The notes under the pieces are model-generated. The model was not told the origin of the DNA, made no database searches, and worked only from the letters and a program-made list of their open reading frames with translations. A DNA stretch of 64,000 nt, taken from IMG/VR virus record IMGVR_UViG_3300042567_001420. One strand, 5' to 3'. Both the position numbers and the translations under genes were made by a program. This DNA comes from a virus (Duplodnaviria; Caudoviricetes). Below, piece by piece: positions 436 through 62,180 of this stretch; within the stretch, counting starts at the first letter, position 1, and every line of letters begins with the position of its first letter.

Positions 436-849
436 CTAGTTTGGACGAGTAATCGAAAGTATTTTTTGGATTTGTGCTTCGATAATCGGAGTTCTATTAG
501 GCCATTTAATATAATCTTTATCCGGATTTTTTAATAAATTAGCTAATAATGGCAGTATTAATGCCTCAACCTTTTTAAGTTTCTCATTAGAATCTTTATC
601 AACCAAAACCTTATAACTATCAATATCAAAATTAGAACCAGCTCCCGCTTTGATTATCTCTTCCATTGAATCAATTTTATTATATACGGAATCTAATTTA
701 TCTTTTAATAATGTTAATTCAACAGATACAGAATCAACTATATCTTGAGTTTTAACTACTGGTTTTTCTACAATAGACTCTTCTGAATCTACAGCTGTAA
801 ATCCAAAATCAAAACCATTATCATATTCAGTCGGAATCTTTATTGACAT
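436..849 (-). CDS. hypothetical phage protein, coiled-coil
   Basis: 137-aa ORF in the operon, overlapping the def stop; no motif recognised. Confidence 0.7.
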   Translation of the reverse strand: MSIKIPTEYDNGFDFGFTAVDSEESIVEKPVVKTQDIVDSVSVELTLLKDKLDSVYNKIDSMEEIIKAGAGSNFDIDSYKVLVDKDSNEKLKKVEALILPLLANLLKNPDKDYIKWPNRTPIIEAQIQKILSITRPN

Positions 850-1402
850 TTAGTGCCTCTATCATTGTTTTAACTGCGTATTTTTTAATTATCTTTTTAC
901 GCTTATTTTCGAATTTCTTTTTAGCATAATCTAATTTAAATTTAGAAACTCGGTCGGTATAATCAGTACCATTCATATGGTCATATTCATGTTGGAATAT
1001 TCTAGCAGTTAATCCATTAAACTCTTGCTCAATTATCTGCCCCGTTTCATTCTGATATGTAGCTTTAATTTTAATTGGTCTTTTAATACCTAACACAATG
1101 CCAGGATAAGATAAACAACCTTCATTAAATAATTCTTCAATATCACTATATTCTATTATCTCGGGATTAAATACTGCAATTTTAGTTTCACCTAATCCCA
1201 TTACAAATACTCGCAGGTCTAACCCTACTTGATTTGCACTCAAACCTACACCACCTAGTTGTTTCATTCTTTCAAATAAAACAGTAGAAATGCCAGGCGC
1301 GCTTTCACCTTCATTGGTAAAATCATAAAGCGCAGGGGGAGCACGCATTACCTCATTATCGGGTTCAACTAAATTTAATTTGTCTTTTCTTAATATAATC
1401 AT
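827..1402 (-). CDS. def: peptide deformylase
   Basis: All three PDF motifs: GVGLSANQVG, EGCLS, HEYDH. Confidence 0.95.
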   Translation of the reverse strand: MIILRKDKLNLVEPDNEVMRAPPALYDFTNEGESAPGISTVLFERMKQLGGVGLSANQVGLDLRVFVMGLGETKIAVFNPEIIEYSDIEELFNEGCLSYPGIVLGIKRPIKIKATYQNETGQIIEQEFNGLTARIFQHEYDHMNGTDYTDRVSKFKLDYAKKKFENKRKKIIKKYAVKTMIEALNVNKDSD

Positions 1403-3111
1403 GATATTCTACTAAAATTTTGATACTTTTGAAACTTAATTACAGACTTAAATTTATCTAGTAGTTGATCGCCTTTATGCGAAATTACAAATACGTTTGT
1501 ATCTTCACCAATTGTATTTAATAAATTCATTACATAGTCTGTGCCATTTGTGTCTAATGAAGAATCAAATACTTCATCTAATAATAGTAAATTTGTACTT
1601 GCACTATTTTTCATCTTGGCAATTGTTCGCCAAGTAAACAATAACGCTAAATCTATTCTTTGTTTTTCGCCTTCACTAAATGAAGCATAACTAAACTCGT
1701 CTCTGTGTCTAGATTTAATTACTTCATTAAAAGATTCATCCAATTCAAAGTGAACAAAGAAATCCATTGCCGCCAGATACTTATTTACTAATTTATTTAT
1801 TGCAGGTAAGTATTGACGAATGATCTTTGTTTTAATGCCGGTATCTTTTAGCAATACACTTGCAATATCTAAATAATGCTTATCTTCTGATAATTTACTT
1901 TTTTCCCCTGCAAGTGCGACCACTTCCTTGGCCAAGTTTTTAAGTTTCCTCGTTTCATCTTCAATGTTTGCCGTATCATTATTGTTGACTGCCAGGTCCG
2001 CCTGTAGCTTTTGAATGTATGTTTGAGATGCGATGATCTTTGATTGGTATCGAATGATGTTGCTTGTATATTCAGAGATTTTCTTTTCGATCGCATCAAT
2101 CTCATTAAGTCTAGTTTCAACACCTTCAAGTTGCAAGCCAAGGGCTTCAATCGCAGATTGCACTTCTTCACGTTTATGTGTATGAAGTTCGATTGCGGAT
2201 CCTTTGAGATGTTCGTCAAGATCCTGGCTACACGTTGGACAAACATCGTGGTCGTGGTAAAATTGTATGCTTGTTTCTTGATTAGTAATTCTTTCGGAAA
2301 GCTTTCTAAGCAACGCTCCCATCTCCGTACGCTTGTTACGCTTCTCATCGGCGTCAGATATAGAGGATTTACAACTCGTTTCTTTTTCTTGCTCGACCAG
2401 CATTCCTGCATTAAGTTGTGATATCTCAGCATTCGATTCAAGTATGCGCTTTTGTACATCTTCAACTTTCTTTTGTTTGTCGTTTTCGAGGGTTGCAATA
2501 TATTGTTGATGCAACTTGACCTTATTTTTACCTAAGGTAATATCATTTTCAATCTCTGTTATACGAGCTTTTATTTCAGTTGTTTTATCTTTTAATACTG
2601 CATTCATAACTGTGAAAATTTGAATGTCTAAAATATCCTCAATAATTTCACGTCTCGATCCCAATGCTAATTGCATAAAGGGAGTAAATGATGCAGATCC
2701 TAATATAACAATCTGAGTGAATGATTTGTAATTTAATTTTAAAATACTTTCTTCAAGATACTTTTGATAGTCTCTTGCGGCAGCATCTTGATTCAATAAT
2801 ACGTCATTGCAATAGATTTCAAATATGCCAGGTTTCATTCCTCGCACAATTCTATAATCTTTGTTACCGATAGAAAATTCAACCTCAACAACAAGTAACT
2901 TGCCGTTGATAGTATTCATTAACTGCGGTTTGTTAATATTCCTAAATGGTTTATTAAAAAGTACAAAACAAATTGCATCTAAAATAGTGCTTTTGCCTGC
3001 ACCGTTTTCGCCCACAATTAAAGTAGATGAGGATTTAGTAAAATCTATTTCAGTAAATTGTCCGCCGGTTGATAAGAAGTTTTTCCAACGTATTTTCTTA
3101 AATTTTATCAT
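1399..3111 (-). CDS. gp46: recombination endonuclease ATPase subunit (Rad50/SbcC-like)
   Basis: Walker A GENGAGKS, coiled coil with CPTC zinc hook, signature FSEGE, Walker B LLLLDE. Confidence 0.97.
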   Translation of the reverse strand: MIKFKKIRWKNFLSTGGQFTEIDFTKSSSTLIVGENGAGKSTILDAICFVLFNKPFRNINKPQLMNTINGKLLVVEVEFSIGNKDYRIVRGMKPGIFEIYCNDVLLNQDAAARDYQKYLEESILKLNYKSFTQIVILGSASFTPFMQLALGSRREIIEDILDIQIFTVMNAVLKDKTTEIKARITEIENDITLGKNKVKLHQQYIATLENDKQKKVEDVQKRILESNAEISQLNAGMLVEQEKETSCKSSISDADEKRNKRTEMGALLRKLSERITNQETSIQFYHDHDVCPTCSQDLDEHLKGSAIELHTHKREEVQSAIEALGLQLEGVETRLNEIDAIEKKISEYTSNIIRYQSKIIASQTYIQKLQADLAVNNNDTANIEDETRKLKNLAKEVVALAGEKSKLSEDKHYLDIASVLLKDTGIKTKIIRQYLPAINKLVNKYLAAMDFFVHFELDESFNEVIKSRHRDEFSYASFSEGEKQRIDLALLFTWRTIAKMKNSASTNLLLLDEVFDSSLDTNGTDYVMNLLNTIGEDTNVFVISHKGDQLLDKFKSVIKFQKYQNFSRIS

Positions 3112-4163
3112 GCTTCATTATAATGTTGTGCTTCTACATATAAAGTCTTTAGCAAAGTCTTTAACCGCTCTTTGTCAGAATCTGTTTCAACGCTATCTAC
3201 ATAATCAGATAACAATGTCATAGTATCTTCTAGATCAATTGAATCATCCAATGCACTAGCTTCAAACTCTGAAAAGTCTTCTATAATTTTTAATTCTATA
3301 GGATTGTTTGTATAAATAGCTTCTACAAATTTATCGAATTTTAAAATATCTTTTTTGTTAACTACTACGAGTTTAACATACTTGTTAGTAAATATTGACT
3401 TGTCAATTAGATTAGGATCTGTCTTTTCATCGTCATAGTAATGTTTAATAAACATATTAAACGGATTCTGAATAAAATCAAACAAACCAGTATCAGTATC
3501 GAAGATGTAAAATCCTTTAGGATCGCCTTCATCGTTCCAAGCCAGTTCGTATGGAGTACCCAAATATACGATGTTATCTTCGTGCGACCTAGTATGATAA
3601 TGTCCACTGAAAACAGTATTATAGGTTTTCAGCATTGCTCGATCCATACCATCATGACTATCAATACCTTTCATCATTTGAAATCCTGATAGCTCAAAAT
3701 GACCGGCACAAAAATCGGATGCGGATTTAGTTATAAAGTCTGCAATGTCATTTTCATTTTCTTTACAGATCCAAGGAATAATGTCCATTTGAGCATTGTC
3801 AAATTTTAACGTTGTAGGTTCTTGAATGATAGTAATGTTATCGTAATCTTGTAATAACAAATCTGGAGAATTTACTTTTAGGCTTTCTTTCCAGAATATA
3901 TCGTGATTGCCAATTAAGGCAATTAGATCCATTTTCTTTTCAACTATCACATCAAAGAAATATCGTCGTGCCTCAGCAAGAGACATAAAGTTAATATATT
4001 TTCTTCTATCAAATAGATCACCTAGTTGCAATATAGTTTTTATATTGTTTTGTTCTAGATATGGAAAAAGAATCTCGCTATAAAATTTCTCATAATATGC
4101 ATGGAATGCTTTAGAATCATTCCTAACACCAAAATGAGTATCGCCCAATAAACAAAGTTTCAT
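3108..4163 (-). CDS. gp47: recombination endonuclease nuclease subunit (Mre11/SbcD-like)
   Basis: GDTHFG, GDLFD, GNHD and GHYH metallophosphoesterase motifs; adjacent to gp46. Confidence 0.97.
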   Translation of the reverse strand: MKLCLLGDTHFGVRNDSKAFHAYYEKFYSEILFPYLEQNNIKTILQLGDLFDRRKYINFMSLAEARRYFFDVIVEKKMDLIALIGNHDIFWKESLKVNSPDLLLQDYDNITIIQEPTTLKFDNAQMDIIPWICKENENDIADFITKSASDFCAGHFELSGFQMMKGIDSHDGMDRAMLKTYNTVFSGHYHTRSHEDNIVYLGTPYELAWNDEGDPKGFYIFDTDTGLFDFIQNPFNMFIKHYYDDEKTDPNLIDKSIFTNKYVKLVVVNKKDILKFDKFVEAIYTNNPIELKIIEDFSEFEASALDDSIDLEDTMTLLSDYVDSVETDSDKERLKTLLKTLYVEAQHYNEA

Positions 4164-4166
4164 GTA

Positions 4167-4649
4167 TTAATTAAATTCGTTGTCTTCTCTATGACCAGAA
4201 CGGCCTGCCATATTAGAATCAGTCTCGCGAACTTCTACTCGGCAGCACCAAACTCTTTTAGCTTCTTCGCTGCCGCAATTTGGCAAAAAGATTGTGTTAA
4301 TATATTCATATAAGAAGTCAGATAAACCTTCACACCCTGTACGCTCTACTTCTGTGATCTTAGCTAGTTTTAATCTACCCAATTCCAATAGATGTTCGCG
4401 CATTGGATCATCTTGTGCAACTAGCAGAGTGTGGTCAAACCATTCTTCTAGCTTGTCTTTAAGTGGTCGTAGCCCACCAAAATCAGTTACCCAATTACGA
4501 GCATCCAATGTATCTGCTTCAAATTCGAAATGAAAACTCATGGCATAACCATGAATCAAATTACAATGTGAATCTGCACGCCATTGCCGATATGCAACCG
4601 GACCTATTTGTCTATATGTTTTTGTTGAGAAGAATTTTTTATTTGCCAT
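4167..4649 (-). CDS. queD: 6-carboxytetrahydropterin synthase (QueD-like)
   Basis: SHCNLIHGY, VTDFGGL, FDHTLLV, GCEGLS, VRETDSN: PTPS/QueD T-fold motifs. Confidence 0.85.
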   Translation of the reverse strand: MANKKFFSTKTYRQIGPVAYRQWRADSHCNLIHGYAMSFHFEFEADTLDARNWVTDFGGLRPLKDKLEEWFDHTLLVAQDDPMREHLLELGRLKLAKITEVERTGCEGLSDFLYEYINTIFLPNCGSEEAKRVWCCRVEVRETDSNMAGRSGHREDNEFN

Positions 4650-4687
4650 CTCTTGCCTCTTTAAGTAAGTTTGACGACATGCAGAAT

Positions 4688-5710
4688 TTATAAAGCGGGA
4701 TGAATGTTCGGGTAAGACCGCTGGTTTGTTAAAGCCTCATATGTTTGAGAATTATACCATGTGTTTAAAGATGATAAAATATCAGACATATCATATACAG
4801 GTGTCCAATCTGCAAGACGTTTAAACATTGTACTATCAGCAACTAACGATGGAGGATCTCCATCGCGTCGTTTATTAATAAATGTTACAATTTCTTTATT
4901 GGTAATTTTTTCTACAAGCATTTGAATTTGTAGATTAGAATGCCCCTGAAGCATCCCTAAATTATATATGCCTTGAATAGAATTGTCAATAGCTTTTATG
5001 TGTGCAAGTGCAATATCTTGAACATGAATATAATCTCTAATACAAGTTCCGTCGGGCGTATCATAGTCTGCACCATTTAAAGTGAATGATGTATTATGTT
5101 TGACTGCTTCAAATAGTTTGGCAAAGATATGTGTTGCATTTGGTTCTTGCCCATGCTGACCTTTATCGTCAGCTCCGCATGCATTGAAATATCTAAATGC
5201 AGTGAAATTTAAGTTGTGGCATCGATGATACCATTCCAATAAATGTTCAACCATTAATTTAGATTGACCATAAGGAGAAATAGGATCGACCTTATCGTTT
5301 TCCCTCAATGGTGTTTTTGTTGTAGGAATGCCGTAAACAGATGCGCTACTACTAAAAATAATCTTAGTCTTTGGAATATGTTTAGCAACGAAATCTAAAA
5401 GCAAATTTGTTTTAGATACATTGTTGTGAAAGTAATGTCCTGGATTTTTCATACTAGGACCAACAAGGCTAGTGCCTGCACAATGAATAATTGCTACAGG
5501 ATAAACCTTTTTATATAGACTAAACGCATCCATGTCTGTAAAATCACATTGAAGAAACTCATCTTGAAATGCATCAAGATGATCGTTGTGTCTGTTATCA
5601 ATACCGATAACTTCGTAGCCTTGTTTCTTTAATTCGATGCAAGTCTGGCCGCCGATATAACCGGCAGAACCCGTAACAACGACTAATTTAGTACTTGGCT
5701 GCTGGGACAT
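4688..5710 (-). CDS. galE: NAD-dependent epimerase (UDP-glucose 4-epimerase-like)
   Basis: TGSAGYIG, FSSSASVYG, YGQSK, FRYFNACGA, GTCIRDYIHV. Start moved to MSQQ at 5710. Confidence 0.92.
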   Translation of the reverse strand: MSQQPSTKLVVVTGSAGYIGGQTCIELKKQGYEVIGIDNRHNDHLDAFQDEFLQCDFTDMDAFSLYKKVYPVAIIHCAGTSLVGPSMKNPGHYFHNNVSKTNLLLDFVAKHIPKTKIIFSSSASVYGIPTTKTPLRENDKVDPISPYGQSKLMVEHLLEWYHRCHNLNFTAFRYFNACGADDKGQHGQEPNATHIFAKLFEAVKHNTSFTLNGADYDTPDGTCIRDYIHVQDIALAHIKAIDNSIQGIYNLGMLQGHSNLQIQMLVEKITNKEIVTFINKRRDGDPPSLVADSTMFKRLADWTPVYDMSDILSSLNTWYNSQTYEALTNQRSYPNIHPAL

Positions 5711-6857
5711 GATCTCTATAATCCTTACCGCTACGATACCATTTAGCATTATCCTCAAACATAATATCCAAACAACGATCAATAGTACCAGATGTCCAGT
5801 CAGACAACTTGCCTAGATTTGCTCGCTCTTGAACCAGCAATGTATTTAATTTAAATACTGCGTCATCTTGTGACCATGGAATATAAAGACATTCGCGATC
5901 ATTAGCAAATGATTCTGGGAAAGATCTATAAGCAGGATACAAACAATTTGTACCTAATGCATCTGCCTCTGATGCAGTGTTGCTTACCCAATCCTGCAAT
6001 GCACAATTAAACAATACTCGAGAATCGCCCAACAATTCATAATACTCATTCTTTTTAAGATTTTCATAGATTTTAAAATTATGAGTCTTTTCCAATGCTC
6101 GCGCGCGAGTCAAATACTTTTCGTTATTACTACGCAAAGGTCCACCCGATAACACAGCAAATTCTACACCCGGGTTAACTGTATGATATCTTTCAATAAG
6201 ATCCATAAAGAAATCAGGTTGTTTCTCCTGATCAAATCTTGCAGCAAATACCACACGTTGTTTACGCTGATTAAATGGAATACGATTTGCTACACGACTA
6301 CGAACTTCATCTTTATCAAATGCAAGTCCGGAGATATTAAAGATTGGCGCTTCCCAACCTGCAATTTTCATATGAGCAACCATTTCTTCGTTAGATGCAA
6401 GTACACCTGTAACAAATTGATCTGTCATTTTCTCATAAAGACCCATCCACTTCTGCATATCCCATACGTGAACAAAATCATCGGGGTCAATAGATTGTGC
6501 AAGACAACGAACAAAAATTCTAGGTTGATATTCGTAGCTTACTTGATCCATAATATAAGGCAGCGCCTCAATACCGGGAGTAAACATATCTTCAAAAAAG
6601 ATTGTGTCTTCAAATGTTATTTCGCCAGCTTTCATCTTCTTAATAAGATTAGCCATTTGTGTCAGCGAATAATAACTACGCCCATGTGCATCAAGCACTT
6701 GACCGGTAACAATTGCTTTAGAGTCATCTAGAATATCACCATGAATTACTTCATAGTCAATACCTCTGCGTTTAAATGCAGCTTCGCTCCATTGTTGCAA
6801 TTGTAAAGTATAGCGACCTTCATAAGGTTCTAAACCCATATAATATAATTTACTCAC
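5688..6857 (-). CDS. GT-B fold glycosyltransferase
   Basis: C-terminal VVFAARFDQEKQP and QDWVSNTASEADALG...YPAYRSFPE resemble the GT4-type nucleotide-sugar binding region. Confidence 0.75.
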   Translation of the reverse strand: MSKLYYMGLEPYEGRYTLQLQQWSEAAFKRRGIDYEVIHGDILDDSKAIVTGQVLDAHGRSYYSLTQMANLIKKMKAGEITFEDTIFFEDMFTPGIEALPYIMDQVSYEYQPRIFVRCLAQSIDPDDFVHVWDMQKWMGLYEKMTDQFVTGVLASNEEMVAHMKIAGWEAPIFNISGLAFDKDEVRSRVANRIPFNQRKQRVVFAARFDQEKQPDFFMDLIERYHTVNPGVEFAVLSGGPLRSNNEKYLTRARALEKTHNFKIYENLKKNEYYELLGDSRVLFNCALQDWVSNTASEADALGTNCLYPAYRSFPESFANDRECLYIPWSQDDAVFKLNTLLVQERANLGKLSDWTSGTIDRCLDIMFEDNAKWYRSGKDYRDHVPAAKY

Positions 6858-7302
6858 CTGCTATCCTTTCAAAACTAATTCTGCAACCGTTTTCACCATC
6901 TTCTGATACTTCAATAGTATAATCCCTATCAGGCCATTGTGCCGCACATTTATCATAAAGCTCACATGCCATCATTTCGCATGACTTATAATCTAAATGT
7001 AGTGTGCCATCAGAATACCATCGTTCCATAATGCGTTTTGCCTGAATAAATTCTACATCTCGATCATCATGAAATACTTCCATCTCTACGCGGAAATGAA
7101 AAATATGTCTATGCGGTGTTCCTAAGAATGAAACATCCAGCCAATCGCCTGTTGCTAATTTAGGATCAGTTGCTGCTTGGGGATATTTATGAATACCCTC
7201 TTTACGAAAGGTAACCCAAATAGAACTTTTCTTTTTAATTAATTTACTGTGTATAATTGTATCTGTAAAAAATACTGGCTCGTTTGAAATAATATCGGTC
7301 AT
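6850..7302 (-). CDS. dpdL: QueD-paralog T-fold protein, DpdL-like (putative 7-carboxy-7-deazaguanine decarboxylase)
   Basis: LGTPHRHIF matches the LxxxHRHxF signature I recall for DpdL; also SCE and VSEDGENG T-fold motifs; adjacent to dpdA. Confidence 0.7.
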   Translation of the reverse strand: MTDIISNEPVFFTDTIIHSKLIKKKSSIWVTFRKEGIHKYPQAATDPKLATGDWLDVSFLGTPHRHIFHFRVEMEVFHDDRDVEFIQAKRIMERWYSDGTLHLDYKSCEMMACELYDKCAAQWPDRDYTIEVSEDGENGCRISFERIAGE

Positions 7303-8585
7303 GCAAATAAATCCTCAAGTGAAACTGGTGGTTGTGTGTTAACTGGTTCAGACTCCATATACTTTCCTACATTTCTTTCCCAATCTTCAAAATCAGAAAG
7401 ATTCTTAACATCAAACAATGTAGCGTATTCATTCTCACAGCCTTTTTCTCTACAGAACTTTAAGAACAATTCTTTCGATTCTGTTAAAGCATTGACATCG
7501 TGAGTAAAATTATGTACGTTTGTTAAAATAAAAGCAAGACGTGCTCGCATAATATCAACAAATTTTCCGCCTGCTTCTAAATGAACGCCGACCCCTCGGT
7601 TCATTAAGATATGGTATTCTTCAGGAGTATAATTTGTTCCACATACTGCATTAATTTCTGTAGTAACTGTTCTATAAATGTTAGAATACTCTCTGCCCAT
7701 TTTTACAGATGTGCCGCCATATGGGGAACCTGCTGCCTTTTTAGCGAATGAAAAATAAAACAATCCATTATCTAATGACATGGAATGTGTAGTAGAGTCA
7801 TATGAAATATCAATACCTTCATATAGACCAGATTGACTAAAACAAATATAAGGCAGAATGCGACGTAATGCACCTACACCCAATACGTGTAAATGAAATG
7901 GTCTAGTATACGGCATCTGTGTAACATAGAATGCTCGTTTAACGTCTTCTAATTGTCCCATACCCAGAGCAGCCGATCCCATAGCAAGACCACCGATACG
8001 ATGATGCAATGCCGGAGTAATTTCTTCGAGTACTAATTTTGCCCAGCGTGAATATGATTCTTGCGATGAACCCTGCATAATAACAAATGGTCTACATTTG
8101 CTACCCATCTTATCGAATGTTTCAATTTGCGATTTTACATTCCTGCCCGTTTGTCTTGCATAATCATCAAAATTATCCATGTCTGCATATCTACGCTTAG
8201 TATCAATCTTAGATGATACGCCACTTGTAGAAGTTGTCTTAACAGGAATCTCATCAAACGACATACCAATGTCTGCATATGCACCTTGATTCAAATAAAC
8301 TTTTTCTCTAACTTCTGGAGTATTTTTTAAACCGCGAGTAATAATCTGCAAACCTCCAGAGTCAGCATGAATATTATTAATTGAAGCACGAAACTTTTGT
8401 AACTTAGGTCCAAAGTTCTTTTCCGTAAATCCATTATACAATAATGAGAATGTGTGGTTGTTTTGTTTATGACATACTTTAGCAATCATGTCAAGCATCA
8501 TTTCTAATACATCGGGGTCATTACATTGTTCTGCACCCAGCCGCAAATATGCTGGGCCAGAAATTACGTATTCATATGTTCTCAT
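7299..8585 (-). CDS. dpdA: DNA 7-deazaguanine transglycosylase (TGT fold, DpdA-like)
   Basis: TGT-family motifs DSGGLQ, MSFDEIP, HLHVLGVG, SYDS; context of folE/queD/queE. Confidence 0.85.
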   Translation of the reverse strand: MRTYEYVISGPAYLRLGAEQCNDPDVLEMMLDMIAKVCHKQNNHTFSLLYNGFTEKNFGPKLQKFRASINNIHADSGGLQIITRGLKNTPEVREKVYLNQGAYADIGMSFDEIPVKTTSTSGVSSKIDTKRRYADMDNFDDYARQTGRNVKSQIETFDKMGSKCRPFVIMQGSSQESYSRWAKLVLEEITPALHHRIGGLAMGSAALGMGQLEDVKRAFYVTQMPYTRPFHLHVLGVGALRRILPYICFSQSGLYEGIDISYDSTTHSMSLDNGLFYFSFAKKAAGSPYGGTSVKMGREYSNIYRTVTTEINAVCGTNYTPEEYHILMNRGVGVHLEAGGKFVDIMRARLAFILTNVHNFTHDVNALTESKELFLKFCREKGCENEYATLFDVKNLSDFEDWERNVGKYMESEPVNTQPPVSLEDLFA

Positions 8586-9955
8586 GCAAACAGGCTTTCT
8601 AATGAAGAAGTGACTTCTTCTTTTGGTATAAAATTAGGATCTTTAGATAAGTATGTGTCGTTGTCTGTGTAAATTATATTATATTTAGACTTATTTGTCA
8701 ATATACTTTTGACATCATCTATAGCTAATTGTGATCTATTTAGGATTTTAATAAAGTCTGAATATTTGATTTCGGTATAATCATTAATTTTTGCAGAATC
8801 AGATCGTGACAAAGATGTTTGAGTGTAACTAGATAAGAATTTTTTCCATCTATCAGATGTTTGAAAATCCAAATGTTTGATATACTGCAACGCATCATGG
8901 TTGCGTTGTTTTCGATCAGCATTATATTCTACTTTTAATACTTCGGCAACTTCATTTAACGGTAACCGAATATAATATGCAGGATCAAAATTAGTTACCC
9001 ATTCAGATTTGTCAATAACAATACAAGGCATATGACCTAAACATTCAAAAAATGTGAACGGGTAATTTTCTCTTAGTGAAGGGTTAAAGTGAACCTTTGC
9101 AGATTTAATAAAGTCAACTTTTTCTTTACCAACAATACTAGCTTTAATCTCATAATCGGTAATACCAAGTTCTGCAAGACGAGCTTCAAACTTTTTCTTG
9201 CCGTTAGCATTCGTCATAATTTTTGCAGGCAATCCAGTCTCTTTAATTACTTTTAAAAATGCTTCTGGATTTTTACGATCTTCCCACCGACCAATATATA
9301 AGACGCCTTTTCTTTCTGAATAATCACTTGTGAGCAATTCTCTTTCAGACATAGGCATACTTAAATGTTCTACATCAACTCCGCCATTATTTTTAATTTC
9401 AGTTACATTACGTGCAGATTGTGTGCCAATATAACAACTTTCAAGATTCATTAAGTTGTTAAAAAATTCATTACAACTTTCTAAGAATACGCCTTTGAAT
9501 TTTCTAGTATCACGGAACACCATACTCTCTTCATGCGTGTAAAATACTACAGGAATGTAACTATTAAGATCAAAACTCAATACTGCGGGCATAGCCTCTA
9601 AAGAATTACATACTACCATATCATAGATATTAGTATGAAAAGCATTCATAACAGCATCACGGAAATTAATCATCTTTTCAAAGTTAATTGAATCAGTAAA
9701 TGCAAAAGTACCGGTATGATTTTTATATGACAAGGCATTTTTCGGAGCAATTAAATTTGCGCCCAATGATTCAACTAATTTTGCAAACTCATTTGTTGTG
9801 GGTTTGTCCGTAATAATATCAACCTTCCAGTCAATTTTATTTGCCATTTCAACAAATCCCTTTGCAAATTGTCCAATCCCACCATGCGGAACAAGGTGTT
9901 GATCGCTAATGCAAAACGCAACTCTCTTTTTATAAAGACGCATATTACTCACCAA
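8582..9955 (-). CDS. GT-B (GT4-like) glycosyltransferase with C-terminal extension
   Basis: N-terminal PHGGIGQF, LYIGRWEDRKNP, and FNPSLRENYPFTFFE. Confidence 0.85.
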   Translation of the reverse strand: MVSNMRLYKKRVAFCISDQHLVPHGGIGQFAKGFVEMANKIDWKVDIITDKPTTNEFAKLVESLGANLIAPKNALSYKNHTGTFAFTDSINFEKMINFRDAVMNAFHTNIYDMVVCNSLEAMPAVLSFDLNSYIPVVFYTHEESMVFRDTRKFKGVFLESCNEFFNNLMNLESCYIGTQSARNVTEIKNNGGVDVEHLSMPMSERELLTSDYSERKGVLYIGRWEDRKNPEAFLKVIKETGLPAKIMTNANGKKKFEARLAELGITDYEIKASIVGKEKVDFIKSAKVHFNPSLRENYPFTFFECLGHMPCIVIDKSEWVTNFDPAYYIRLPLNEVAEVLKVEYNADRKQRNHDALQYIKHLDFQTSDRWKKFLSSYTQTSLSRSDSAKINDYTEIKYSDFIKILNRSQLAIDDVKSILTNKSKYNIIYTDNDTYLSKDPNFIPKEEVTSSLESLFA

Positions 9956-10454
9956 GAATTTTAATTAAGTGTTTTGTTTGATGCATCGCATCATCTAAGG
10001 CATTATGATACGTACCTTCGCGTTTGTCTTCTGGAATCCAATTGAACATTGCTTTAGCAGTTCGGTAACAACGATCATCCCAGCATTTCCAAGGTGGTTC
10101 TCTGCCTGTAATGAAGTATGCATTACCTAAAATTGTGTTATCAAATACAGCACCGTTTCCCCAAATAGGTAAACTCTTAGGGCCAAACCATAACTCAAAT
10201 TTATCCAATGCTTCTTGCAATGATATATTATTCTTTGTTAATTCTCGCAAGGCTTCTTTATTTTGTTTAGACCACCATGCAACGGTATCTTTAGAAATAT
10301 GCATTCCAGCTTCTTTACAGCTAGCAAGATCAATGGTGCAATAAAATGTATCTACAATTTTACTACCTTCAAATTTTACTGCACCAATTGAACAAATTGC
10401 TGCGTGTGATCTTGTTGACATTGTTTCCAAGTCAACCATTACATTAATTGTCAT
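9945..10454 (-). CDS. DEDDh 3'-5' exonuclease
   Basis: VMVDLET, WGNGAVFD, HNALDDA motifs. Confidence 0.88.
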   Translation of the reverse strand: MTINVMVDLETMSTRSHAAICSIGAVKFEGSKIVDTFYCTIDLASCKEAGMHISKDTVAWWSKQNKEALRELTKNNISLQEALDKFELWFGPKSLPIWGNGAVFDNTILGNAYFITGREPPWKCWDDRCYRTAKAMFNWIPEDKREGTYHNALDDAMHQTKHLIKILGE

Positions 10455-11134
10455 TTACATCCTTGTCGGGCAATCTGATAAAACTCGTTTCTTACTGCTG
10501 GATCATTTTTAAATCCACCACCTAAACGAACTGTTACTGTAGAGCTACCTGTGTCTTCAACACCTCTAGATTTTACGCAATAATGTTGAGCATCAATCAA
10601 GACTGCAACATCTTCAGTATCAAGAATATACTGTAAAGTATGAAACACTTGCTCTGTTAAGCGTTCTTGAATCTGAGGGCGTTTGCTAAAATATTCTACA
10701 ATACGATTGATCTTAGATAGACCAAGAACCCTAGTCTTAGGTACATAAGCAACTGTTGCTAATCCATCGATAACAACAAAATGATGCTCGCAATTAGATT
10801 GCACATTTACATTGCGCTCACATACCATTTCGTTATACTGCATTTTATTATCTACAGTAGTGCATTTTGGAAATGCATCATAATCGAGACCCCAAAAGAT
10901 TTCATTAACATACATTTTAGCAACACGCTTAGGTGTTTCAATTAGACTATCATCTGTAAGATCAAGGCCAAGTGTTTCCATGATCTTGGCAAATAAAGGT
11001 TCGATAACTGCTATCTTATCTTTACGATCTGGAATTAATGATTTTTTTGTTGGGGTTTCAACACCCATTTTAACTAGGTGTTCGTGAACTCGTTGACCCA
11101 ATTCTGGATCGCATTTAGTTTTATTGAAACTCAT
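10451..11134 (-). CDS. folE: GTP cyclohydrolase I
   Basis: ETPKRVAKM, CEHHF, GLSKINR, PQIQERLT, HYCVKSRG. Confidence 0.97.
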   Translation of the reverse strand: MSFNKTKCDPELGQRVHEHLVKMGVETPTKKSLIPDRKDKIAVIEPLFAKIMETLGLDLTDDSLIETPKRVAKMYVNEIFWGLDYDAFPKCTTVDNKMQYNEMVCERNVNVQSNCEHHFVVIDGLATVAYVPKTRVLGLSKINRIVEYFSKRPQIQERLTEQVFHTLQYILDTEDVAVLIDAQHYCVKSRGVEDTGSSTVTVRLGGGFKNDPAVRNEFYQIARQGCK

Positions 11135-11195
11135 TTGATAACCTTCCTTTGTGATGGTTTATTTTTGACAGTATGTTACCGTTGCGTAACATAAG

Positions 11196-11203
11196 TATTT
11201 ATT
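11196..11203 (-). promoter_or_regulatory. possible late-promoter variant (AATAAATA) upstream of folE
   Basis: One mismatch to T4 TATAAATA; the same variant occurs upstream of gp8, gp25 and gp13. Confidence 0.4.
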
Positions 11204-11267
11204 ACTTTGATTTTGTTGTTGGATCACACCCGCATACGCCTTACTGACTTCTTACGGGTGACCATAA

Positions 11268-11462
11268 TTATGCCTTAGTTTTCGCTTCTGCTCTAGCTGC
11301 TTTTTCGGCAGTAATTTCATTGCGACGTGCTTTAACTGCTTTAGATAACTCTGCTAATGCTTTGCGTGTACGTGTACCTGCGGCTGCATTGCCTTTGTTA
11401 AATTTCTCATTCTCAGCATTATATGCTGCTAAACTTGTTTCGATGTCGTTATGTGCGCTCAT
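11268..11462 (-). CDS. histone H1-like (Hc1-family) small basic protein
   Basis: KGNAAAGTRTRKAL...KARR matches the bacterial Hc1-like pattern (KGNKAAGTRARK). Confidence 0.7.
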   Translation of the reverse strand: MSAHNDIETSLAAYNAENEKFNKGNAAAGTRTRKALAELSKAVKARRNEITAEKAARAEAKTKA

Positions 11463-11478
11463 ATTATTTTCCTTTTAG

Positions 11479-12348
11479 TTAAGTGCCCCATGCGTTTTTA
11501 AACAATGGGATTTGTAGTCGGTCGGAATATCTCCAACCTTTTTGCATTGCGTACTCTGCAACGCTGCGATTATTAAGAGAGTACAGCCGCTCAGTCCCAC
11601 CGAGAGGCATAAGATAAACAGGACCTGAGAAACCAGCTTTACGATATGCATTTACTGCCTCTTCTGCTTCTTCTGCATCTTCTTTAGATCCAATTACAAA
11701 TTTAAGATATGTATATCCTACCCATTCATACCCTGCTACAATTTCTGGGCAAATTGCATCTTCCCACTTTTCACCTGATACCGATAGTTTAGGTGAAACT
11801 GAAAATGTTAAAGCATCACAACCTCTTTTGCTTGTGCGACCTTTATTATTTAGTGTCCAATTTAAAAGATATTGTTTAAATTCATTAGACAAAGGTTGTG
11901 TTCCATTTGTCTCAAATGTCAATTCTTTTAATGCTATCATTTTTTCATTACCGAGTAATTCCGGATATTGTTTTTGCCAACCTAATAGAGGCTCACCTCC
12001 AGTAATAACTAGGTGTTCGTCTTGCCATTTTTTATACGGGAGTGTATCGACGATTGCTTCCACAACATCTTTAACATCGAGTACAGGGCTAAGATGCTTA
12101 AAACGAGGGTCCCAACTAGCATAGGAATCACAGCCAGTGTGTACGAGAGGCAAGTCATTATAATTTTTAAAGCTTTCGGCCTTAATCGAGATAACATTTC
12201 GTTCATCGCTTTTTTCGCCTTTTGGCATGCCGAACCCGTCGCAAGTAAAATTGCAACCAAATGTTCTTAAGAAGACAGAGGGCGCACCCATATAGCGGCC
12301 TTCACCCTGAATTGAATAAAATAGTTCTGAAATTTTAAGTTTAGCCAT
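11479..12348 (-). CDS. queE: 7-carboxy-7-deazaguanine synthase (radical SAM)
   Basis: ISELFYSIQGEG, FLRTFGCNFTC, VITGGEPLL, ETNGT, SVSPK, RLQ. Start moved to MAKLK at 12348 (GGAG RBS). Confidence 0.93.
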   Translation of the reverse strand: MAKLKISELFYSIQGEGRYMGAPSVFLRTFGCNFTCDGFGMPKGEKSDERNVISIKAESFKNYNDLPLVHTGCDSYASWDPRFKHLSPVLDVKDVVEAIVDTLPYKKWQDEHLVITGGEPLLGWQKQYPELLGNEKMIALKELTFETNGTQPLSNEFKQYLLNWTLNNKGRTSKRGCDALTFSVSPKLSVSGEKWEDAICPEIVAGYEWVGYTYLKFVIGSKEDAEEAEEAVNAYRKAGFSGPVYLMPLGGTERLYSLNNRSVAEYAMQKGWRYSDRLQIPLFKNAWGT

Positions 12349-12373
12349 AATGACTCCGTTCAACAATACTCAT

Positions 12374-12402
12374 ATTATATAGTGTTTAATCATCTAAGTC
12401 AA
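12374..12402 (-). promoter_or_regulatory. sigma70-type early promoter heading the modification cluster
   Basis: TTGACT-N17-TATAAT upstream of queE. Confidence 0.85.
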
Positions 12403-13021
12403 GTGGATTACTTGAATCGTCCGAAATTATTTTGTTCTTTTTAGGAGTTGAAATTACCCGTTTTTCAATATCAATAGTATCCATTTGCCGTTTTAAGTAA
12501 TCTAAGAACTGATTACCAAATTCGCCGTTGTCATGTTCTTGAAGAATTAATGAATCAATATCCATATTCTCAATCAATTTATACTTAGTAGCTTGTTGCT
12601 TCTTTTCTTTTTGGATACGTCTAATAAAAGCAAAGTATATAATTTGAGTATAATATGCGAAAGGATTTGATCCTTTAGATGGGTCAAATTTGACAACAGC
12701 AGTTAGACAATTTTCAATTCCATCTGAAATCATATCATCTTTAAATGTATAATTAATGAAATTAGATTTATAAGATAAATGTGTTGCAATTTTAATAAAG
12801 CATTCACCTATGTAGTTAGATACAATAGGTGGTTCTTTTCCTGCGGCCGCCGCATCAACTACACTTTGTCTATATTCAATAAGAGCTTGTAAAAACTTTT
12901 TATTGTCTACATAGTGAGACGAAGTAGGAATTTTTACTTCCTTAACTACTTCAGCTATTTCAGTGGAGAGTTCTTCCACGTCTTTTAGGGGGTTCTTTGT
13001 TTTCATTATGCTCTTCTTCAA
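12386..13021 (-). CDS. gp55: late transcription sigma factor
   Basis: HYVDNKKF, IGECFIKIATHL, NPFAYYTQIIYFAFIRRIQKEKKQ. Start uncertain. Confidence 0.95.
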   Translation of the reverse strand: MKKSIMKTKNPLKDVEELSTEIAEVVKEVKIPTSSHYVDNKKFLQALIEYRQSVVDAAAAGKEPPIVSNYIGECFIKIATHLSYKSNFINYTFKDDMISDGIENCLTAVVKFDPSKGSNPFAYYTQIIYFAFIRRIQKEKKQQATKYKLIENMDIDSLILQEHDNGEFGNQFLDYLKRQMDTIDIEKRVISTPKKNKIISDDSSNPLDLDD

Positions 13022-14884: not shown

Positions 14885-15324
14885 TACATCATACCGTTTG
14901 TGAACTTAGACCATTCAATACTATTCTTGATATCCCATGTTCTACTGTTTAAGGATCTTATAATTTGTTCTAATTGATACATAACAGTTTTAAAGTATTC
15001 TACTTTGTCTTGTAGTAAAATTAAATCTGCATCAACCTGCAAAAATTCGTCCATCTCATTTTTCAATGGTTTGTTACCTTGCCATTGAGTCCAACCTTCA
15101 TCTGATAATTCAAGCTGGGTCATTTCTCCCCTGTAATACTTGTATTTCTTTCTACGAAGGTTGAGATATTCAGACTCTGCTTTGCGTAGGTTAAGCCGAG
15201 TAGATGTTAAAAAATTCAAATACTTAGAATGTAATAAAGGTGTGCGAGCAGATTCATGTCCAAGATTAGTCTCATTAATCTTACAATCATCTGCCCACAT
15301 TTCCTGCAGGTCAGATAATTTCAT
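14884..15324 (-). CDS. uvsY: recombination mediator UvsY
   Basis: LHSKYL, RTWDIKNSIEW; adjacent to uvsW. Confidence 0.93.
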   Translation of the reverse strand: MKLSDLQEMWADDCKINETNLGHESARTPLLHSKYLNFLTSTRLNLRKAESEYLNLRRKKYKYYRGEMTQLELSDEGWTQWQGNKPLKNEMDEFLQVDADLILLQDKVEYFKTVMYQLEQIIRSLNSRTWDIKNSIEWSKFTNGMM

Positions 15325-16244
15325 TACTGAGGGCTAATCTGAATAATCTGAGCAGGGTTGCCCTGGAAATTAAATGAACCGTAGTGATTCAATGAGATTG
15401 TTGGATCAAGCCAAATGTCGCCACCGATATCTTGCCAACGTCTGCTGAATGTATAATCTTCTGACAAGTAACGTTTGTCTTTGGGATCAATCATTGTGTC
15501 GAAGAATGCATAGAAGAAGTCTTGCAAATCTGGCGGAGTATTCAAATCATTGTTATACTTTAACTCTGGATATGCAGCAATCATCTTGTCAATTGCTTCA
15601 CGCTTAATCATCATAAAGCCTGTAGCTCCGTCGTGCAATTTAATTACACCATTTTCAATAGCAATTTGTTTTGACTCACGATTAACAAACTTAAAGTTAA
15701 TCGCATAGTCGGAACCAGCGGCAGCAATATCTCTATCAGAAATATCTTGACCGGGTTTAGAATTAATGCTATCTTTAATACGTTGCCAGTTGACGCCCTT
15801 TTTAGGATATGCGCCTACACAAACTTCTTTGTTGTGAGCAATTAATTTAAGTACATCTTCAACTTGAAACTCAATATCAGCATCAATAAACAACAAACGA
15901 GTGTAATTGCTTTGAAGAAAATATGCAACCAACACATTGCGAGCACGAGTAACTAAAGACTCATTTGCAATAGTACCAAACGCCAATGGGATTTGATGTT
16001 GATTGAAGAATGTCAATGTGCGAACCATTGAACGGAAATATGCCTCTGTAAGCATACCACCATAACAAGGAGTTGCCACAAAGATTCTTTCTTTACGCAA
16101 ATCATCAATATTGATTTGCAATTGACCTGGTTGTGCGGCAGGGGGTGCCGCAGGGGGTGCCGCAGCTGCGACTGGGGGTTTGTTAAACTTAGGAACCGGA
16201 ATTTTTGGAATGTTCTTCAGTCCAGGTTTATTGTTGTTAGCCAT
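15324..16244 (-). CDS. GT-A fold glycosyltransferase-like protein with Pro/Ala-rich N-terminus
   Basis: IFVATPCYGG, ESLVTRARN, LFIDADI (DxD), YLSEDYTFSRRW. Confidence 0.75.
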   Translation of the reverse strand: MANNNKPGLKNIPKIPVPKFNKPPVAAAAPPAAPPAAQPGQLQINIDDLRKERIFVATPCYGGMLTEAYFRSMVRTLTFFNQHQIPLAFGTIANESLVTRARNVLVAYFLQSNYTRLLFIDADIEFQVEDVLKLIAHNKEVCVGAYPKKGVNWQRIKDSINSKPGQDISDRDIAAAGSDYAINFKFVNRESKQIAIENGVIKLHDGATGFMMIKREAIDKMIAAYPELKYNNDLNTPPDLQDFFYAFFDTMIDPKDKRYLSEDYTFSRRWQDIGGDIWLDPTISLNHYGSFNFQGNPAQIIQISPQ

Positions 16245-16260
16245 AAAATCTCCATATTAA

Positions 16261-16845
16261 TTAAAGTTGCTCCACTTCAAATAGCGTATATTTAAAAGAG
16301 GCAATTGCGGTAAAATATTCCACACCGGCAGATGCAATATCAAAATCCAATCCTTCTAATGAGATTGGGAATATATCCTTATATATTATATTTACTTTAG
16401 GCGTATTTGTCGAGTCTAAAATCGTTAAAGTTGCATCCGAGTATGCCAAAACTTCAGATTCGCCCCGTTGATTCACTTTAAACGGGAATCTACTAGGTCT
16501 ATTCTTTATTAACGCGTCAAACTGTGTATAATCTTTAGGAAAACCTAAAGCCACTAACCAATTGTATAATTCTAAATAATTGGACATATCTTCCGATATC
16601 AAAAATCTAATTGTAAACGAACCGAAGTCTAGTTTATCACCGATACGTGGAATGTCAGTAAACGGGGTAGGCTGTACGGCAAAACCTAATGCGAGTTGCG
16701 GCAAATTAGCTGATTGGCAAGTAAAAGACACATTGGGAATATCCTTAACAGAAAAGCGGAAAGCATTCGGTCTTAGATAATCATATGTCGTGGGTAATGA
16801 ATTTGCATAATTTTGCTTTGCTACATTTACATTTGCAGTATACAT
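16261..16845 (-). CDS. gp3: tail tube terminator/completion protein
   Basis: YLRPNAFRF, FTCQSANLP, FLISEDMSNYLELYNWL; downstream of gp23. Confidence 0.85.
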   Translation of the reverse strand: MYTANVNVAKQNYANSLPTTYDYLRPNAFRFSVKDIPNVSFTCQSANLPQLALGFAVQPTPFTDIPRIGDKLDFGSFTIRFLISEDMSNYLELYNWLVALGFPKDYTQFDALIKNRPSRFPFKVNQRGESEVLAYSDATLTILDSTNTPKVNIIYKDIFPISLEGLDFDIASAGVEYFTAIASFKYTLFEVEQL

Positions 16846-53750: not shown

Positions 53751-54200
53751 ATGTACACCAAAACCTACAAAGGCCGATTTAGGGTATTGAATCCTGCAAA
53801 ATATAAAGGCGACATTACTACGGTAATCTATAGGTCTCTATGGGAACTTAGATTTATGAAATGGTGCGATCAGAGCCCCTCAATTATAGAATGGGGATCT
53901 GAGACCGTTATAATACCCTACGTGTCCCCGGTTGATAAAAAGGTGCACAGATATTTTGTAGATTTTTATATAAAAGTTAAATCTAAGAACAATACGACTG
54001 AGAAGTTCCTCATAGAAATAAAACCCGAAAAATTTACTAAACCGCCAGAAATCCCTAAAAAGAAAACAAAACGGTTTATTGACGAAGTTTTCCAGTACGG
54101 CGTAAATGAAGCTAAATGGAAAGCAGCTTTTGAATTTTGTACTGATCGAAATATGAAATTTATAGTATTAACCGAAAAAGATTTAGGATTATCCAAGTAA
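53751..54200 (+). CDS. gp4: head completion nuclease
   Basis: YKG, YRSLWE, WGSE, HRYFVDF, EIKP, NEAKW. Confidence 0.92.
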   Translation: MYTKTYKGRFRVLNPAKYKGDITTVIYRSLWELRFMKWCDQSPSIIEWGSETVIIPYVSPVDKKVHRYFVDFYIKVKSKNNTTEKFLIEIKPEKFTKPPEIPKKKTKRFIDEVFQYGVNEAKWKAAFEFCTDRNMKFIVLTEKDLGLSK

Positions 54201-60712: not shown

Positions 60713-60978
60713 AGGGGTAATTTACCACGCGGCCTCATATAGTTTTGCTCTTCTGCCTCATTTTGAATCTTATCTTTTAGTGATTGATTAATTAGATTGG
60801 CAACGGCCGCAACATCAATATCAATTTCATTGCAGTATTGTATTACTGCATCCATATATCCTATACTTTCAGATAAGACCTTTTCTTCAATATACAAAGA
60901 GAATTCATTTTGTGATCTGAATCTTTTGGTAATAATTAAACTGTCGGTCAATACTTCATTTAAATTAAGTTCTGTCAT
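60709..60978 (-). CDS. gp33: late promoter co-activator
   Basis: YMDAVIQYC, SLKDKIQNEAE; adjacent to gp59. Confidence 0.9.
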   Translation of the reverse strand: MTELNLNEVLTDSLIITKRFRSQNEFSLYIEEKVLSESIGYMDAVIQYCNEIDIDVAAVANLINQSLKDKIQNEAEEQNYMRPRGKLPL

Positions 60979-61649
60979 TCGATCTCTGGAAATAAAATTT
61001 CATCCATAAAGGTTCTAAACACAGTTTGATCTATGCCAAGGGTAGTCATCATTGCTGGGGTGTGGGGATTCATCTTTTGAAATTTACAATAGTTGTTGTA
61101 TCTCTCTTTATATGACTCTCCGGTTTTTTCTACTTGTCCTACATTATAAAGGTAAACGTGCAAGCTTTCAATAGCTAGATCGGACAATTTGTCCAATTCT
61201 TCTTCTTCGGATATATTGCCCGCCGCAATCATTCCGGGACTAAAAATTTGAGTTGCCCACTCAGGCAATATTCTTGGTTTATTCCATTCTAATTTAGATG
61301 AACGATCAATAAACCAAGTATACAAATCACAATTTCCGTTTTTAGAAAAATCATGGAATGCACCTGTAATTTTGCTAGCTCCGCACACTACATCAAATCC
61401 AAAGATTGGAGTAGGATCATCAAACTCTGGAAAAATTGTCATGTGCATAACCCAGATCTTTTTTGCTTCGCGCGCATCAACAATTTCCACATGGGCTCTG
61501 CGATAATTCTTCGAAGTAAAAATATAATTTTCCCAAAGATATCCTTTTCCTTGTTCTGCGGTATATTTTAATTCATCATCTGTTGTTTGTTCCAATGTCT
61601 CAAGAATATTTTGAGACAACGGAATCATTTTATCCCATACTAAAGACAT
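60975..61649 (-). CDS. ferredoxin-dependent bilin reductase (PcyA/PcyX-like)
   Basis: YRRAHVE, VMHMTIFP, PIFGFD, FHDFS, LPEWA.IFS, QKMNPHT; next to heme oxygenase. Confidence 0.85.
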   Translation of the reverse strand: MSLVWDKMIPLSQNILETLEQTTDDELKYTAEQGKGYLWENYIFTSKNYRRAHVEIVDAREAKKIWVMHMTIFPEFDDPTPIFGFDVVCGASKITGAFHDFSKNGNCDLYTWFIDRSSKLEWNKPRILPEWATQIFSPGMIAAGNISEEEELDKLSDLAIESLHVYLYNVGQVEKTGESYKERYNNYCKFQKMNPHTPAMMTTLGIDQTVFRTFMDEILFPEIE

Positions 61650-62176: not shown

Positions 62177-62180
62177 AATT

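Follow-up and report, generated by a model that had tools for sequence, protein, structure and literature searches.

The described system that comes closest to the locus presented here is that of Cellulophaga phage phiST, whose DNA contains plain 2'-deoxy-7-deazaguanosine (dDG) at full replacement (PMC10516641). The locus itself is an operon of ten genes on a 64,000-nt stretch of DNA from a virus of the Caudoviricetes (Duplodnaviria; IMG/VR record IMGVR_UViG_3300042567_001420), which at its full length is called the window in the following. Both systems have in common FolE, QueD, QueE, a DpdL with the signature LxxxHRHxF, a transglycosylase of the TGT family, the absence of QueC and a presumed anti-restriction purpose. 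In contrast to the window, phiST has neither a glycosyltransferase nor GalE, and its DpdA3 comprises 259 aa without a clamp-type tail, whereas the DpdA2-like protein of the window has 428 aa and no BLASTP similarity to it. New relative to the dDG pathway of phiST are the glycosyltransferases GT2 and GT1, GalE and the clamp-type tails. The T4-like Vibrio phages VH7D and nt-1 share a homologous DpdA2 and the T4-like background with the window, but they carry QueC and QueF, leading to 7-cyano-7-deazaguanine (preQ0), 7-aminomethyl-7-deazaguanine (preQ1) and derivatives, only 0.01-0.1% of G is modified, and their systems contain neither DpdL nor GT2. Phage T4 offers a parallel to the proposed pathway with two GT-B enzymes that act on phage DNA after replication, one of which is clamp-bound (alpha-GT) and the other free (beta-GT). 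The T4 acceptor is a hydroxyl on a pyrimidine (5-hydroxymethylcytosine) made before replication, whereas the likely acceptor in the window is a purine analogue; furthermore, the two T4 enzymes belong to other families than the GT4-like pair of the window. In animal tRNA, QTMAN (GTDC1) and QTGAL reportedly attach mannose or galactose to queuosine. These enzymes resemble the case proposed here in that a nucleic acid with a 7-deazaguanine derivative serves as the substrate of a glycosyltransferase, but the sugar is placed on the cyclopentenediol hydroxyl of queuosine and the nucleic acid is RNA. To our knowledge, all published deazaguanine bases of phage DNA are without sugar, and published DNA glycosylation is, as far as we know, on modified pyrimidines in every case. 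The full-text literature that was searched held no paper on glycosylated deazaguanine in DNA, on a clamp-bound DpdA or on C-glycosylation of deazaguanine, and no phage record matched the operon in a megablast search.

We propose that the window contains a DNA-hypermodification operon of a T4-like phage that yields a sugar-bearing 7-deazaguanine in DNA, a reading to which we give a probability of about 50%. According to their known families, FolE, QueD and QueE would convert GTP to 7-carboxy-7-deazaguanine (CDG), and DpdL, by analogy with the dDG of phiST, would turn CDG into a 7-deazaguanine that is unsubstituted at C7. The DpdA2-like enzyme would exchange guanine for this base in DNA while held by the sliding clamp at the replication fork; its tail can be read directly, and the binding is predicted from it. 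GT2 would take a hexose from UDP-Gal or UDP-Glc, with GalE supplying the donor, and attach it to the DpdL product, which could be the free base or already part of the DNA; the clamp-tailed GT1 would add a sugar on DNA, probably the second one. The product would be a sugar-bearing 7-deazaguanine that blocks restriction enzymes. That the deazaguanine of the virion DNA carries a sugar, of which kind and in which number, is what we infer from the sequence. Such a base would represent a new chemical class of DNA base, with relevance for restriction enzymes, Type IV systems, glycosylase defences, CRISPR evasion, nanopore base-calling and enzymatic DNA labelling.

Association of GT2 with DpdL

GT2 (positions 5688-6857; like all ten operon genes on the minus strand) is assigned from its fold model and its donor-site residues as a GT4-like GT-B glycosyltransferase and is proposed to attach the first sugar. 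Its family is large, with at least 8000 proteins at 90% clustering, 826 clusters at 50% and 304 viral-contig loci; the locus counts given here refer to the best 80 of these 304 loci, with denominators that vary with the available flank. Where the flank suffices, DpdL adjoins GT2 in 74/74 loci; galE is the next gene after GT2 in 72 of 73, and a DpdA lies at most 3.5 kb upstream of GT2 in 64 of 66. Of the two-glycosyltransferase set described in the first-pass annotation, GT2 is the conserved enzyme and GT1, which is present in 31 of 65 loci, an optional second one. The loci of lineage A have the arrangement of the window in the slot between gene 55 and gene 47, and those of lineage B follow directly after the DNA polymerase and comprise a 520-aa TGT-like protein (ILGDSGGFQI), DpdL, GT2, GalE, a cytidylyltransferase-like protein, FolE and a phosphoribosyltransferase. 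Three types of DpdA are found beside GT2, namely the 428-aa phrog_10773 type, the 520-aa DSGGFQ type and the phrog_887 type. Distant GT2 relatives with 31-41% identity, which come from five independent metagenomic contigs (L087-L091), have a DpdL within three genes in 5/5 cases, and the three contigs with enough flank (L087, L088 and L091) also contain QueD, QueE, FolE or a DpdA. On L088 (1111-7858), the distant set of GT2, DpdL and QueE together with a DSGG-type DpdA is located beside a resolvase gene and a RES-domain gene, which may mean that mobile elements other than phages carry the GT2-DpdL module as well. A search of prokaryote genomes with a single distant GT2 (P0322) found nothing.

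The set of GT2 and DpdL also occurs in cultured phages, including the well-studied Pseudomonas jumbo phage PA5oct. When the neighbourhoods (8 kb) of 12 DpdL lineages of cultured phages were scanned with the GT2-family profile, matches with E <= 1e-37 at a distance of at most 3 kb from DpdL were obtained in BUCT-ZZ01, ACP17, X1, PA5oct, Phosso and BCSR5, and the hosts of GT2-carrying cultured phages include Pseudomonas, Burkholderia, Sinorhizobium, Acidovorax and Xanthomonas. The same profile had no match in the DpdA2-type phages with QueC and QueF or a QueC-like protein, i.e., pf16 (QueC and QueF), Mendera (QueC-like) and VH7D. The first-pass annotation had left it to co-occurrence whether the glycosyltransferases go with dpdA or with pyrimidine-modification or surface-glycan genes, and in all loci examined GT2 stands with DpdL and deazaguanine genes. 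Because GT2 is always accompanied by DpdL, yet DpdL is often found without GT2, we read GT2 as an add-on after DpdL. Hence, judged from gene content, GT2 implies DpdL and not the reverse, which looks like a tailoring enzyme acting on the DpdL product and not like a core step or an unrelated passenger. In PA5oct, the DpdL and GT2-family genes are followed by an 86-aa gene and then by an epimerase-like gene. The DNA of this phage contains modified G, the chemical identity of which is still open (PMC12191111). At 7630-8594 of the PA5oct locus, an open reading frame (ORF) of 172 aa with an epimerase N-terminal match precedes one of 144 aa, and both may be parts of a split or frameshifted GalE-like gene.

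DpdL (6850-7302, 150 aa; phrog_17812, 5e-31) is a QueD paralogue without the catalytic Cys and a proposed CDG decarboxylase. The DpdL family is defined by the LxxxHRHxF signature (Cui, Hutinet et al., NAR 2023, PMC10516641), and the sequence LGTPHRHIF, which replaces the CxxxHGH of QueD type, fits this signature, so that the gene marked dpdL-like in the first-pass annotation can be named accordingly. The protein shares 34.5% identity with phiST DpdL (tblastn), and its context is as expected, i.e., with FolE, QueD, QueE and DpdA and without QueC, which was found neither among the scanned window ORFs nor in a complete 222-kb relative (CheckV 100% complete; its GT2 81% identical), on which the genome-wide absence tests were run. 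The DpdA-family DNA guanine transglycosylase (7299-8585, 428 aa; phrog_10773, 3e-99) contains the motif DSGGLQ, and tblastn aligns it over 67% of its length, at 35% identity (2e-40), with the DpdA2 of Vibrio phage VH7D, an enzyme that is active by experiment (PMC10516641). Its family-model score stays below the cut-off (TIGR00449, 28.6 versus 47.6 bits), and Pfam TGT gave no match at E <= 0.01. A DpdA3 label of the phiST type was ruled out, as the best BLASTP E-value against phiST CGPG_00065 is 1.7 and the protein is closer to DpdA2. The dpdA call of the first-pass annotation thus holds for the DpdA family and is refined to DpdA2-like.

When dpdL and dpdA of ACP17 alone were expressed in E. 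coli, no dDG was formed, and the authors suspected missing enzymes (PMC10516641). The GT2-family gene of ACP17 sits between these two genes. A different role of GT2 would be that of a helper forming a transient sugar intermediate, such as a CDG glycosyl ester or a glycosylated pterin or base, which DpdL or DpdA would process further, with plain dDG or 2'-deoxy-7-carboxy-7-deazaguanosine (dCDG) as the final base, while GT1 might still act on DNA. The ACP17 result and gene arrangement, the link of GT2 to DpdL rather than to DpdA, its end without a clamp tail and its nearest folds, which act on small molecules, would suit such a helper. On the other hand, phiST attains full dDG replacement without a glycosyltransferase, and six DpdL lineages have no GT2 nearby, so that GT2 is dispensable for the DpdL route. 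Moreover, a dedicated GalE beside GT2 fits a stoichiometric use of sugar better, and a clamp-tailed GT1, or the DxD protein that replaces it, would be pointless if DNA offered no acceptor for a sugar. Therefore, we consider a transient intermediate to be unlikely, and a sugar that stays on the base remains the preferred reading.

Several deazaguanine clusters contain further genes. Purine phosphoribosyltransferase genes are located within those of the freshwater Synechococcus phage BUCT-ZZ01 (5742-6203), which is the best cultured relative of the operon, and of locus L055 (12189-12689), and these enzymes might salvage the guanine that DpdA sets free and thereby return it to GTP, from which the pathway starts. 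In Mendera (5505-7989 and 16133-16633), a myo-inositol-1-phosphate synthase and a QueC-like protein adjoin a clamp-tailed DpdA, with a cytidylyltransferase nearby, which may be a different, inositol-linked route of deazaguanine tailoring. Rhizobium phage RHph_I1_18 (484-8339) has uvsW, gene 55, gp47, gp46 and peptide deformylase as in the window, then QueD, FolE and DpdL and, after DpdL, a macro-domain (Appr-1-p processing) gene; GT2 was not found there within 8 kb.

Glycosyltransferase folds and clamp-type tails

The AlphaFold models of GT2 and GT1 reach a predicted local distance difference test (pLDDT) of 92.9 and 84.3, respectively, and Foldseek returned at least 500 PDB structures at E <= 0.001 for each of them, with GT4/GT5 enzymes at the top. 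The best fold matches of GT2 in PDB and Swiss-Prot are glycogen synthase, SenB, BshA, GlgM, MshA and PimA (E about 1e-12), and those of GT1 are WlaC, HepE and MshA (E about 1e-11), GT1 having an extra C-terminal domain. GT1 has 1913 homologues; 23 of them were aligned, and 47 homologues down to 29% identity were used for GT2. Invariant in GT1 are GRWExRKNP, with R223 and K228 as R-x4-K, and E296-x7-E304; GT2 has R207 and K212 without exception and D289 and E297 with few exceptions. According to a profile search, R207, K212 and E297 of GT2 align with the donor-site blocks GRLxPFKGP and EAQASG of MshA. Furthermore, PF00534 is matched by 31 of the 47 members of the GT2 family at E <= 0.01, with 4.5e-10 as the best value. 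Thus, judged from models and motifs, both proteins look like catalytically intact GT4-like GT-B enzymes, and the two GT-B calls of the first-pass annotation are borne out by modelled folds and kept donor-binding residues. A Pfam scan of GT1 and GT2 at E <= 0.01 gave GT4-type families only, and neither T4 alpha-GT (PF11440) nor T4 beta-GT (PF09198) was among them. A QTMAN-like identity of the GT2 family was also considered and not confirmed, as QTMAN_N (PF12038) matches 0/47 members and GTDC1 is not among the top 30 Swiss-Prot folds for GT2. The isoelectric points of GT1 and GT2 are near neutral or acidic and uninformative on DNA binding.

Among the fold matches are also tetrahydrobiopterin glucosyltransferases (5ze7, rank 18, for GT2; 9v0l for GT1). 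Together with the pterin-binding T-fold of DpdL and the cyanophage-type auxiliary genes of the window, these would fit an operon whose FolE, PTPS-like DpdL, GT2 and GalE together produce a glycosylated pterin comparable to the cyanobacterial biopterin glucoside, a small-molecule side product unrelated to DNA. However, many other GT4 enzymes rank at least as high as the pterin transferases, DpdL accompanies GT2 in every case, and all contigs of sufficient extent also contain QueE and a DpdA. Since GT2 is also found in phages of the five host genera mentioned above and no sepiapterin-reductase-like gene was seen in the operon, a pterin glycoside is highly improbable compared with a sugar on the DNA base.

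GT1 (8582-9943), assigned from its fold model and conserved motifs as a GT4-like GT-B glycosyltransferase with a proposed role in DNA glycosylation, ends with the tail SLESLFA (8585-8605, minus strand), a proposed epitope for the gp45 sliding clamp, in which L and F are invariant after a variable linker in the 23 homologues. DpdA ends with SLEDLFA (7302-7322, minus strand), likewise a proposed clamp epitope, which is kept in related loci. In the orthologues of both proteins a variable linker is followed by [ST]L[ED]xLF plus one residue, and BUCT-ZZ01 has the ends SLDSFFD (DpdA) and SLEDFFND (GT1). GT2, DpdL, GalE and the exonuclease end without such an LF tail. Phage T4 has hydrophobic-acidic C-termini of a similar kind on gp43, gp55 and gp33, which serve as interchangeable gp45 clamp epitopes (PMC2988020), and T4 alpha-GT co-purifies with gp45, whereas beta-GT does not (PMC13216743). 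As the gp43 gene falls outside the window, the gp43 tails were taken from relatives: the gp43 DNA polymerase of four lineage-A relatives ends with TLEGLFG or TLEGLFS, and the ends of gp43 and DpdA are SLDDLFE and TLDELFE in ACP17, SLEDLFG and SLDDLFG in Mendera, and SLESLFG and SLEELFG in X1, respectively. A complex predicted for the gp45 trimer of a relative with GT1 residues 396-457 scored 0.55 versus 0.01 for the best control, with runs agreeing in at least 94% of contacts and a partner pLDDT of at least 57, which we rate as weak support. The score mark used is reached by 51 of 78 solved complexes and 2 of 108 mismatches, and scores of 0.60 or under comprise only 5 of the 78 solved complexes and all 4 passing mismatches.

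In a sublineage (L020-L024) whose GT2 is 93% identical, a protein of 300 aa that is unrelated to GT1 occupies the GT1 slot; its DND motif is invariant, and it ends with SLESLFL. Because two unrelated proteins in this slot both keep a polymerase-type tail, the slot can be assumed to hold a DNA-directed enzyme. By language-model features, the 300-aa DND (DxD) protein lies near clusters of TAGT (PF20691, the TET-associated or beta-glucosyl-HMC alpha-glucosyltransferase, HMC being 5-hydroxymethylcytosine) at 0.96, a likeness that concerns the sister lineage and no protein of the window. A TAGT identity was not confirmed by Pfam HMMER or by a PDB profile search, and profile searches with the protein gave weak GT2-family matches of 0.04-0.14 and a probably spurious dianthin match. 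Taken together, the tails suggest that DpdA and GT1 are tethered to the sliding clamp by a gp43-type tail. The DpdA2 of VH7D, with its low G modification, has no LF tail. Clamp tethering may explain the high replacement by some DpdA enzymes and would make the 'post-replicative' modification fork-coupled.

T4-like phages carry cargo of various kinds in the gap between gene 55 and gene 47, members of the GT1 family are also found elsewhere in the absence of dpdA, and GT4 enzymes are very versatile. It could therefore be argued that the glycosyltransferases act on a target other than deazaguanine, be it a different DNA base made by genes outside the window, a protein of the replisome or virion, or a glycan of the host, and that the operon is merely a convenient early unit in a variable slot. 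Yet the linkage of GT2 and DpdL persists at 31-41% identity, with three DpdA types and in several genome contexts, the clamp tail of GT1 points to DNA, and the operon has no late promoter. Furthermore, neither a ThyA-family hydroxymethylase nor a TET gene was found in the complete relative. In detail, the 222-kb genome gave no PF00303 thymidylate-synthase-family hydroxymethylase and no QueC, and no QueC, ThyA-type hydroxymethylase or TET gene is present among the scanned window ORFs; the earlier statement that the window is free of hydroxymethylase and TET genes thus agrees with our scan of these ORFs. An assignment of the glycosyltransferases to a late glycan gene set was also rejected, since the operon has no late promoter and GT2 goes with DpdL in phages without such a set in the flanks examined. 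Hence, a target other than deazaguanine appears quite improbable to us, and deazaguanine remains the preferred acceptor.

Proposed linkage of the sugar and points against a sugar-bearing base

The most specific form of our proposal is a 7-deazaguanine with one or two hexoses, the first of them as a C-glycoside at C7, installed during replication by clamp-riding enzymes, and in this complete form it is rather doubtful. It draws on the observation that GT2 occurs with DpdL and never with the routes to preQ0, preQ1 or 7-amido-7-deazaguanine (ADG), from which we would guess that a free C7 matters. Alternatively, the sugar may be esterified to the carboxyl group of CDG or linked through N or O at another position of the base, or DpdL may yield a different product. 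If true, the C7 C-glycoside would be the first glycosylated purine in DNA and its producer the first nucleic-acid C-glycosyltransferase.

Several points weigh against a sugar-bearing deazaguanine, or against parts of the proposed route to it. 7-Deazaguanine offers no hydroxyl or amine at C7 as a sugar acceptor, and we know of no retaining GT4 enzyme, the group with the folds nearest to GT1 and GT2, that forms C-glycosides. The nearest structures of GT2 are mostly small-molecule enzymes (BshA, MshA, SenB, LmbT and the tetrahydrobiopterin glucosyltransferase). With Pfam Glycos_transf_1 (PF00534), GT2 scores 24.6 bits and GT1 17.4 bits, both under the cut-off of 26.4, and because the Pfam scores of the window proteins stay below the cut-offs, the GT-B assignment rests on the folds and the conserved motifs. 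Among the cultured phages, GT2 was not found within 8 kb of DpdL in phiST, RHph_I1_18, Bakedbeans, D479, Ahp1 and MA9V-3; since these are 6 of the 12 DpdL lineages, the sugar step is not part of the core pathway. The clamp model is affected as well: the predicted complex of gp45 and the GT1 tail is weak and may echo solved clamp-peptide complexes, and the gene 55 protein of the window ends with LDLDD instead of the LF motif, so that the tail is not found on every expected clamp partner. In addition, GT1-like genes are located away from dpdA and without the tail in X1, and also in Erwinia jumbo phages. Finally, the 222-kb relative gave no Tet_JBP match in a search that had no positive control.

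Operon layout and neighbouring genes

The ten co-oriented genes (4167-12402, minus strand) have the order queE, Hc1, folE, 3'-5' exonuclease, GT1, dpdA, dpdL, GT2, galE and queD, and the gene order and identities given in the first-pass annotation were recovered by Pfam, PHROG and NCBIfam scans. The operon is inserted between T4-type genes 55 and 47/46, with the synteny uvsW-55-operon-47-46, and on the T4 map the same slot, between genes 55 and 47, holds alpha-gt. The upstream flank encodes a gene 55-like late sigma factor (12386-13021, minus strand; PF04542 region 2, 22.6 bits) and the downstream flank a gp47/gp46-like pair of recombination nucleases (1399-4163, minus strand; Metallophos and SMC_N/AAA_23 matches). 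Because the flanks consist of uvsW, uvsY and gene 55 on one side and of gp47 and gp46, followed by peptide deformylase, on the other, the phage is classified by gene content as T4-like.

The radical-SAM CDG synthase gene queE (11479-12348) was assigned by phrog_2076 (E 8e-51) and weak NCBIfam QueE matches, and its true start is the ATG at 12348, which is preceded by GGAG. GTP cyclohydrolase I is encoded by folE (10451-11134; PF01227, 1.8e-60; phrog_2197) and the 6-carboxytetrahydropterin synthase with the motif CxxxHGY by queD (4167-4649; phrog_2389, 3.8e-41; PF01242, 56.4 bits). The UDP-glucose 4-epimerase gene galE (4688-5710; PF01370, 8.6e-50), with a likely start at the ATG at 5710, exceeds the equivalog cut-off of TIGR01179 (278 versus 262.3 bits), in line with its first naming. 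The Rv2179c-like DEDD 3'-5' exonuclease (9945-10454; PF16473, 4.7e-46) is kept at this place in many lineage-A loci and in BUCT-ZZ01 and is absent from L041-L051. An Hc1-type histone H1-like DNA-binding protein (11268-11462; PF07432, 45.6 bits versus a cut-off of 23.5) is encoded between queE and folE; this chlamydial/Bacteroidota-type gene inside a DNA-modification operon is a variable passenger that is present in some related loci only.

The description of the operon as tightly overlapping applies to the core from folE through galE, where the junctions are -4, +1, -4, -4, -8 and -23 nt, but not to its ends, with gaps of 16 nt after queE, 133 nt after Hc1 and 38 nt before queD. The sigma70 promoter of the first-pass annotation corresponds to a sigma-70-like candidate, TTGACT-17-TATAAT (12374-12402, minus strand), with 11/12 matches in the gap between gene 55 and queE; however, such sites are as a class not enriched, with 39 in the window versus 38.8 in shuffles. 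No late TATAAATA motif was found inside the operon. From the upstream sigma-70-like site and the absence of a late promoter, early expression of the operon is proposed. Two perfect 12/12 sites (TTGACA-17-TATAAT, minus strand) lie within coding sequence, one at the 3' end of GT1 just upstream of dpdA (8673-8701) and one within galE upstream of queD (4961-4989), and they may be internal promoters.

Elsewhere in the window, a ferredoxin-dependent bilin reductase and a heme oxygenase (60975-62233, minus strand) are encoded, which, like the peptide deformylase (827-1402, minus strand), are auxiliary genes typical of cyanophage-like T4 relatives. A 306-aa protein (phrog_1574; 15324-16244, minus strand) beside uvsY has weak GT8/Anp1-like matches and may be the product of a further glycosyltransferase-like gene. 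A gene with a TnsA-like endonuclease domain (53751-54200, plus strand) is located where the minus-strand late block switches to a plus-strand block.

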